From a virus (Duplodnaviria; Heunggongvirae; Uroviricota; Caudoviricetes): a DNA stretch of 20,661 bases. Of the stretch, positions 19,784 to 20,661 are shown one piece after another (position 1 is the first letter of the stretch; each line of letters opens with the position of its first letter). Position numbers and translations under genes: made by a program. The notes under the pieces were generated by a model. It ran no database searches and was not told the origin of the DNA. It saw only the letters and a program-made list of their open reading frames with translations. Location: positions 1 to 20,661 of the IMG/VR virus record IMGVR_UViG_2872152978_000006, one strand, 5' to 3'.

Positions 19784-19803
19784 ACTTGGGTAATGACTCC
19801 AAC

Positions 19804-20307
19804 TTACTGATAGTGTTTTATGTTCAGATAATGCCCGATGACCTTGTCATGCAGCTCCACCGATTTTGAGAACGACAGTGACTTCCGTCCCAGCCTTGCC
19901 AGATGTTGTCTCAGATTCAGATTATGTCGCTCAATGCGCTGAGTGTAACGCTTGCTGATAACGTGCAGCTTTCCCTTCAGGCGTGATTCATACAGCGGCC
20001 AGCCATCCGTCATCCATACCACGACCTCAAAGGCCGACAGCAGGCTCAGAAGACGCTCCAGTGTGGCCAGAGTGCGTTCACCGAAGACGTGCGCCGCAAC
20101 CGTCCTCCGTATCCTGTCATACGCGTAAAACAGCCAGCGCTGACGTGATTTAGCACCGACGTAGCCCCACTGTTCGTCCATTTCAGCGCAGACAATCACA
20201 TCACTGCCCGGTTGTATGCGCGAGGTTACCGACTGCGGCCTGAGTTTTTTAAGTGACGTAAAACCGTGTTGAGGCCAACGCCCATAATGCGTGCACTGGC
20301 GCGACAT
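19804..20307 (-). CDS. insB: IS1 InsB
   Basis: 167-aa ORF recognised as IS1 InsB. Confidence 0.9.
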
Positions 20308-20501
20308 CCGACGCCATTCATGGCCATATCAATGATTTTCTGGTGCGTACCGGGCTGAGAGGCGGTGTAAGTGAACTGTAGTTGCCATGTTTTACGGCAA
20401 TGAGAGCAGAGATAGCGCTGATGTCCGGCAGTGCTTTTGCCGTTACGCACCACGCCTTCAGTAGCGGAGCAGGAAGGACATCTGATGGAAATGGAAGCCA
20501 C
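20226..20501 (-). CDS. insA: IS1 InsA
   Basis: 91-aa ORF with the zinc-finger motif CPSC...CSHC of IS1 InsA. Confidence 0.9.
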
Positions 20502-20556
20502 GCAAGCACCTTAAAATCACCATCATACACTAAATCAGTAAGTTGGCAGCATTACC

Positions 20557-20661
20557 CATAAATTCAACGCCGCGAAAACCACACTGCGCAGCTTTCTCAA
20601 AACGGGCGAGAAAATCATATTCACCAAATAACATCGATAAATTAGCAGAGAAACGTAACAT
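20557..20661 (-). pseudogene. hyi: 5' fragment (35 codons) of a hydroxypyruvate isomerase-like gene (hyi-like), truncated by IS1
   Basis: Reverse complement from the window edge reads ATG... MLRFSANLSMLFGEYDFLARFEKAAQCGFRGVEFM, then runs straight into the IS1 end; matches the Hyi N-terminus as I remember it. Confidence 0.5.

Follow-up and report, generated by a model that had tools for sequence, protein, structure and literature searches.

IS1 elements are 768 bp long, end in imperfect inverted repeats of ~23 bp, and carry insA and insB' with an A6C motif; their target duplications are of 9 bp, or sometimes 8 bp. The IS1 described here, which lies close to the right end of a 20,661-nucleotide stretch of DNA (the window), resembles the family in each of these respects, and also in having a 9-bp target duplication, which is recovered once the half-sites on two IS1 copies are paired. 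It differs in that its flanks derive from two different insertion sites. Classical IS1-promoted adjacent deletions occur next to the element. Such a deletion resembles the state of two sister genomes (L062 and L064), with one fixed IS1 end, 10,757 bp missing beside the other end, and no duplication, although recombination between two direct IS1 copies would leave the same deletion. The window junction differs from an adjacent deletion in that its IRR flank appears to have been exchanged twice afterwards.

Seferbekova et al. (2021; PMC8072062) placed 103 of 114 reconstructed inversions on branches of Shigella, with 33 of these lying between two S. dysenteriae. The window IS1 very probably belongs with such events, as one of two IS1 copies that bound a 195-kb inversion in Shigella dysenteriae, with flanks taken from two older IS1 sites and on top of an older 10.8-kb deletion. 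As in the inversions of PMC8072062, two inverted IS copies bound the inverted segment in a lineage with many such events. We see no difference in kind; what is particular to this case is nucleotide resolution at the breakpoints and the survival of two earlier states in sister genomes. The case is a well-resolved instance of a known process, ordinary IS-driven genome scrambling, in genomes that have already been deposited, and it adds nothing new in kind on IS1 or on Shigella genome decay. The surviving intermediate states and the recurrent same-orientation insertions in hyi are mildly unusual, and the exact pairing of half-sites together with the two surviving states gives a nucleotide-level history of the loss of the glyoxylate/allantoin locus and of the reshuffling of the chromosome.

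The window IS1 and its two flanks

The window is 100% identical to positions 2,984,771–3,005,431 of CP026840.1, whose proteins carry Shigella dysenteriae as their source name. Every defining feature of IS1 that could be scored in the window element is present (Table 1). The terminal inverted repeats match at 22 of 24 positions (92%), and the A6C motif is located in the overlap of insA and insB. The element is 99.6–99.9% identical to other copies in these Shigella genomes and 91.3% identical to an IS1A-type copy at the E. coli locus L026; for complete E. coli genomes, the best-matching place averages ~96% identity over IS1 plus hyi. The nine bases on either side of the element differ (ATTTACTTG on the left, CATAAATTC on the right), so there is no target duplication, as the initial annotation of this DNA had stated. 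An IS2-like element of 1331 bp at 2954–4284, inside the thrW island, served as an internal control: it has a 5-bp duplication, ACTCA, and is a simple insertion, in contrast to the IS1.

Table 1. Positions of the features discussed, numbered within the window unless another sequence is named.
Feature	Position or sequences	Strand	Remarks
Q-type late antiterminator gene of a lambdoid prophage remnant, 250 aa	18898–19650	plus	PF03589 (Antiterm), E=3.8e-54
Terminator-like hairpin and T run, 3' of Q	19756–19787	plus	scan: 1 site against 0.1 expected
ATTTACTTG, left copy of the 9-bp target duplication from IS1 insertion into the prophage	19780–19788	plus	single copy in intact prophages; second copy beside IRL of the partner IS1
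Complete IS1, Shigella iso-IS1	19789–20556	minus	768 bp; only copy in the window
IRR	19789–19811		left end of IS1; GGTAATGACTCCAACTTACTGAT, beginning GGTAATGACTCC
insB reading frame, 167 aa	19804–20307	minus	Pfam PF03400, E=6.5e-74; DDE protein
insA, 91 aa	20226–20501	minus	Pfam PF03811 and PF12759, far above cut-offs; zinc ribbon and HTH
A6C frameshift motif	20244–20250		AAAAAAC on the coding strand (GTTTTTT on the plus strand); read from the sequence; putative frameshift site
43-aa chimeric ORF, 35 hyi codons and 8 IS1 codons	20530–20661	minus	publicly annotated 'hydroxypyruvate isomerase'
IRL	20534–20556		right end of IS1; reverse complement GGTAATGCTGCCAACTTACTGAT
hyi codons 1–35, 5' remnant of the hydroxypyruvate isomerase gene	20557–20661	minus	105/105 nt identity to hyi of many E. 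coli genomes
IRR flank, fdrA form	L062, L064		GGAGTTGTTATGATCCACGC, 9 bp before the fdrA start codon; collinear with E. coli; deletion
IRR flank, folD form	L061, L067, L068, L069, L073, L079		CCTAACCTTCGCAAGAGGTC; fdrA-folD block inverted
IRR flank, phage Q-side form	window, L060, L063, L065, L066, L081–L089		CAAGTAAATAAAAACCC
IS1a (window copy)	CP026840.1 3,004,559–3,005,326		reads IRR to IRL
IS1b (partner)	CP026840.1 3,200,549–3,201,316		reads IRL to IRR

To the left of the IS1 lies the end of the prophage remnant, where the Q gene is followed by a hairpin and T run. The initial annotation had recognized this as a prophage terminator bounding the IS1, and we agree: the hairpin sequence is identical in the intact prophages L003–L012 and, judged from sequence, is likely to be the equivalent of the phage tR'. 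Intact prophages hold ATTTACTTG once, in the context ...ATTTACTTG|TACTGAAAC, or, with a longer stretch of the site downstream of Q, ...GGGTTTTTATTTACTTG|TACTGAAAC. Across the site, intact relatives read ...GAGCGGGTTTTTATTTACTTG|TACTGAAACAC..., followed by a 111-aa ORF, the holin gene, the lysis genes, and HK97-like late genes.

To the right, the element meets hyi. The 35 remaining codons translate to MLRFSANLSMLFGEYDFLARFEKAAQCGFRGVEFM, and identity over all 105 nt bears out the earlier assignment of this fragment to the start of hyi. Its last nine nucleotides, GAATTTATG (plus strand 20557–20565, CATAAATTC), abut IRL, and gcl-allR-allA-allS adjoin it in native order. With 35 of 258 codons left, hyi here is a pseudogene remnant. 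The window itself runs from the GTG start of the thrW-island integrase (position 1) to the hyi ATG (position 20661), so that the count of exactly 35 codons up to the edge is in part a product of where the window was delimited; the truncation after codon 35 is itself real. The chimeric ORF across the junction matches exactly ACD08383.1 / B2TTA7_SHIB3 (S. boydii CDC 3083-94) and S. dysenteriae entries, and occurs on 432 contigs. Hyi fragments of 224 aa and 211 aa were considered as the remainder of the Shigella gene; both exist, but they are E. coli start-site variants or E. coli IS1 insertions. No C-terminal Hyi fragment appears among the cluster representatives, but this does not argue for loss of codons 36–258, because clustering merges fragments with the full-length protein. 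A guessed chimeric YlbE protein was absent from the protein collection searched.

Just past the window end in CP026840.1, gcl is split into ORFs of 355 aa and 213 aa (L085 14051–15831). It is likewise split in CP026823.1 and CP026866.1, and intact (593 aa) in other strains. The split gcl shows that the remaining glyoxylate/allantoin locus is decaying further.

Three states of the hyi junction and a 10,757-bp deletion

We compared the hyi junction among the contigs found by look-up of the 43-aa junction ORF. The hyi'-GAATTTATG-IRL side of the junction is constant, and the IRR flank takes three forms (Table 1). Genomes in the folD state include CP026811.1, CP026766.1, CP011511.1 and CP026866.1, and CP026797.1 is in the fdrA state. 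The partners of hyi' across the IS1 are fdrA, folD or phage DNA; no intact hyi continues beyond the element, consistent with the initial annotation. Among the contigs read, all those with the window's IS66-truncated phage gene have the phage form.

Genomes in the fdrA state are collinear with E. coli except that they lack 10,757 bp, as measured on E. coli MB15. The missing DNA comprises nine genes, in whole or in part: hyi codons 36–258, glxR, allW/ybbW, allB, ybbY, glxK, allE, allC and allD. The hyi-side 9-mer lacks its partner half, as an adjacent deletion would predict. In CP026840.1, the fdrA flank (GGAGTTGTTATG) is on a third IS1, and joins it at the same nucleotide as in the deletion-state genomes; the other side of this third IS1 is a fimZ-like fragment, as in the folD-state genomes. 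On the strength of these identical junction nucleotides, glxR-allD are probably absent from the rest of CP026840.1. A qPCR assay for ybbW that is specific to E. coli gave no in-silico amplification from Shigella (PMC11205496), which agrees indirectly with loss of the locus. A literature search on deletions of the Shigella allantoin locus found nothing relevant, and one for papers that name the accession returned none.

The gene on the far side of the deletion is itself damaged. In all of these Shigella genomes fdrA is broken (L058 7055–8721; L062 and L064 7401–8169; L074 and L079 4718–7358), by frameshifts, by an extra IS1 with the 9-bp duplication CACCGTCAT, or by an IS2-like element. Hence, the retained part of the allantoin cluster is also non-functional.

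Set against E. coli gene order, the three states suggest an order of events by parsimony. First, an IS1 would have entered hyi behind nt 105, with insA and hyi in the same direction. The 10,757 bp on its IRR side, which begin at hyi codon 36 and end 9 bp short of the fdrA start codon, would then have been lost, giving hyi'-IS1-fdrA; the loss may have been an adjacent deletion promoted by IS1, or the result of recombination with a direct copy ahead of fdrA. Next, the 11-kb fdrA-folD block, lying between this IS1 and an oppositely oriented copy downstream of folD, would have inverted to give hyi'-IS1-folD, and a final exchange with the prophage would have given the junction seen in the window.

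The reciprocal junction and a probable 195-kb inversion

The two sides of the window junction differ in orientation. The contigs found by exact look-up with the integrase all have pepD-gpt-frsA-crl-phoE-proB-proA ahead of this first gene of the window, and in E. coli SWHEFF_68 the thrW tRNA sits between proA and that integrase; this side of the window has the K-12 plus orientation. From the right edge onwards, the genes hyi'-gcl-allR-allA-allS-mnmH-ylbG-rhs run in minus orientation, reversing the order native to E. coli upstream of hyi. Because a deletion cannot change relative orientation, an inversion endpoint must be inside the window. Exact-protein look-up with the Q protein showed that several chromosomes share the Q-IS1-hyi' arrangement. 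Neither junction of the window IS1 was present in the complete E. coli genomes searched; around gcl-hyi-fdrA, these showed only IS1 events of other kinds. Exact-pattern scans of genome_contigs and viral_contigs gave no match to the window junction or to the expected IS1-hyi 3' junction, a negative that carries no weight, as a control showed this lineage to be missing from genome_contigs.

The phage DNA that follows the breakpoint in intact prophages was found elsewhere in CP026840.1. One variant of the 111-aa protein is named Shigella dysenteriae among the members of its cluster, and its look-up led to a second region of this genome (L043), with the order ylbE-ylbF-ybcF-purK-purE-lpxH-ppiB-cysS-ybcI-ybcJ-folD, IS1, ATTTACTTG-TACTGAAACAC..., the 111-aa ORF, the holin gene, and a truncated lysozyme gene; beyond this gene are other IS elements and then the ecp genes. 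The junction in L043 and L058 reads folD...AAGGTTAGG[IRR-IS1-IRL]ATTTACTTG-TACTGAAACAC... The second copy of ATTTACTTG, at L043 9945–9953, adjoins IRL in the partner IS1 and runs without a gap into the phage sequence. Since ATTTACTTG is to the left of IRR in the window IS1 and to the right of IRL in the partner, a single ordinary IS1 insertion, with its 9-bp duplication, accounts for both junctions, each of which is one half of it.

The two copies, IS1a and IS1b, are in opposite orientation on one replicon with 195,222 bp between them. Read from IRL to IRR, the flanks of the window copy are hyi' and phage Q, and those of the partner are the phage 111-aa ORF and folD; the flanks have been exchanged reciprocally, as in an IS-bounded inversion. 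The collinear flanks and loss of adjacent DNA that mark an IS-mediated deletion junction were not found at the window junction. The parental flank pair hyi' and folD occurs in sister genomes, and one reciprocal exchange between the folD state and a simple phage insertion yields both junctions seen in CP026840.1. Compared with E. coli, the interval is inverted at each end (gcl to rhs at one, ykgM-ecp-lysis genes at the other), over the roughly 10–20 kb that were read there; we take the interior to be the contiguous, inverted K-12 305–536 kb region. The IS cluster at 7.1–8.9 kb of the window was considered as the breakpoint instead; it is also rearranged, but the paired 9-bp half-sites place a breakpoint at the IS1.

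We observed directly the sequences of all the junctions, the agreement of the half-sites, and that the two copies are inverted and how far apart they lie. In the proposed final step, the IS1 in the folD state would have exchanged flanks with an inverted IS1 that had inserted 9 bp after the Q terminator, generating the duplication ATTTACTTG. The intervening DNA would have been inverted, and the products would be the Q-IS1-hyi' junction of the window and the reciprocal folD-IS1-ATTTACTTG-111aa-holin junction. We infer that this step was probably RecA-type homologous recombination between two pre-existing inverted copies, not transposition.

The same two junctions could also have arisen by a single intramolecular replicative transposition, in which the IS1 between hyi' and folD attacked the ATTTACTTG site, so that the element was duplicated, the 9-bp duplication made and the 195 kb inverted, with no earlier IS1 copy in the prophage. 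We consider this unlikely, if by no means negligible. The products of recombination and of one-step transposition are the same and cannot be told apart by sequence alone: each copy has an old flank at one end and a copy of the 9-bp target at the new end, as transposition predicts, but homologous recombination among the very many IS1 copies of these genomes yields the same structure. The two copies differ at only two of 768 nt, which speaks for transposition; however, position 79 is C in all of the reciprocal-junction copies and T in every hyi-linked copy. This difference is a weak hint of a crossover between two distinct IS1 copies, although it could be a later mutation. A simple Q-IS1-111aa insertion, the ancestral form under recombination, was found in no genome read, as expected from transposition, but this is a weak argument, the sample being a few dozen contigs with the prophage region of the folD-state genomes outside it.

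Returning to an exchange between two IS1 copies as the preferred reading, the initial annotation had offered a simpler account, in which the Q terminator and hyi codon 35 are the two ends of one adjacent deletion, mediated by IS1, that removed the phage late region with part of a chromosomal metabolic locus. This is very improbable. Although the missing duplication, the cutting of hyi exactly at the IS1 end and the prophage without structural late genes would all fit a single deletion, the flanks, judged by E. coli gene order, have opposite orientations, the true deletion partner of hyi' is fdrA, and phage DNA past the breakpoint survives at the reciprocal junction with a matching 9-bp half-site, which refutes the model in CP026840.1. 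The 111-aa ORF, the holin gene and the start of the lysozyme gene, supposedly deleted, are retained 195 kb away beside the inverted IS1 with ATTTACTTG. The structural late genes are severed from the prophage within the lysozyme gene, by other IS elements and not by the window IS1. As for the metabolic locus, an IS1-bounded deletion from the 3' part of hyi to allD did take place in the lineage (10,757 bp, as in L062 and L064), but the prophage was not its other end; fdrA-folD and the ecp genes, situated between the prophage site and hyi on the K-12 map, are present.

The missing duplication is, in this case, the mark of an exchange between IS1 copies. The absence of a target duplication around an IS does not alone mean deletion, and in IS-rich genomes such as those of Shigella it more often means that flanks have been exchanged between copies. 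Misjoining of a contig across IS1, which is highly repeated in these genomes and of the sort that usually causes such errors, is hardly credible, given that 10 or more independent assemblies, complete chromosomes and a 77-kb draft contig among them, share Q-IS1-hyi'-gcl, that several of these also have the reciprocal junction, and that the half-sites are accounted for exactly.

Recurrent IS1 insertion in hyi and other IS rearrangements

Simple IS1A-type insertions are present in hyi of E. coli at two positions. One is at nt 104/105 (L026 7227–7994; GCA_900449965.1), with the duplication GAATTTAT(G). The other is at nt 126 (L050 3209–3976, OZ038676.1, and the drafts L052–L055), with the duplication TACGACATT; the 211-aa Hyi remnant of this insertion is listed in 282 index blocks. 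These insertions are in the same gene and orientation as the Shigella element, and at nearly the same position (within 1 bp for L026 and 21 bp for L050). By contrast with the Shigella copy, they are of the IS1A type, their duplications are kept, and the rest of hyi and glxR are directly downstream. Three independent hyi insertions fall within 22 bp, involve two IS1 variants that are only ~91% identical, and always have insA pointing as hyi does. IS1 seems to target the 5' end of hyi repeatedly. It could be that the first ~126 nt of hyi are an orientation-specific IS1 hot spot and, separately, that the 195-kb inversion was one-step replicative transposition of IS1, but that both should hold is doubtful.

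Other IS elements of the window have also taken part in rearrangements. An IS3-family element of 1.25 kb (IS911-like by size) is at 7180–8427, with a second copy at L043 12373–13621. The window copy has no matching duplication, and joins the thrW island to a block at 8950–12200 (an integrase fragment, a 119-aa ORF, PRiA4-like, and PerC) that is inverted relative to its position beside yagU in E. coli SWHEFF_68 (L023). The presence of the second copy beside the lysis-gene remnant at the reciprocal junction suggests another, older inversion.

At 12269–14601, an IS66-family element splits a phage replication-type gene, the 193-aa C-terminal part of which is at 14624–15205. In L083 (PSSQ01000001.1) and L087 (CP026828.1), at 5192–7978, the 128-aa N-terminal part is directly across the IS66. 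In the window, the DNA across the IS66 is unrelated, indicating that IS66 copies have exchanged flanks as well.

The reciprocal junction has itself changed in one genome. In CP026828.1 (L087 2538–3305), the folD-side IS1 meets the phage at a different point, with the flank GAAAATTAC; there is no 111-aa ORF, and the holin ORF as called is longer, at 173 aa. This junction points to a further IS1-adjacent change.
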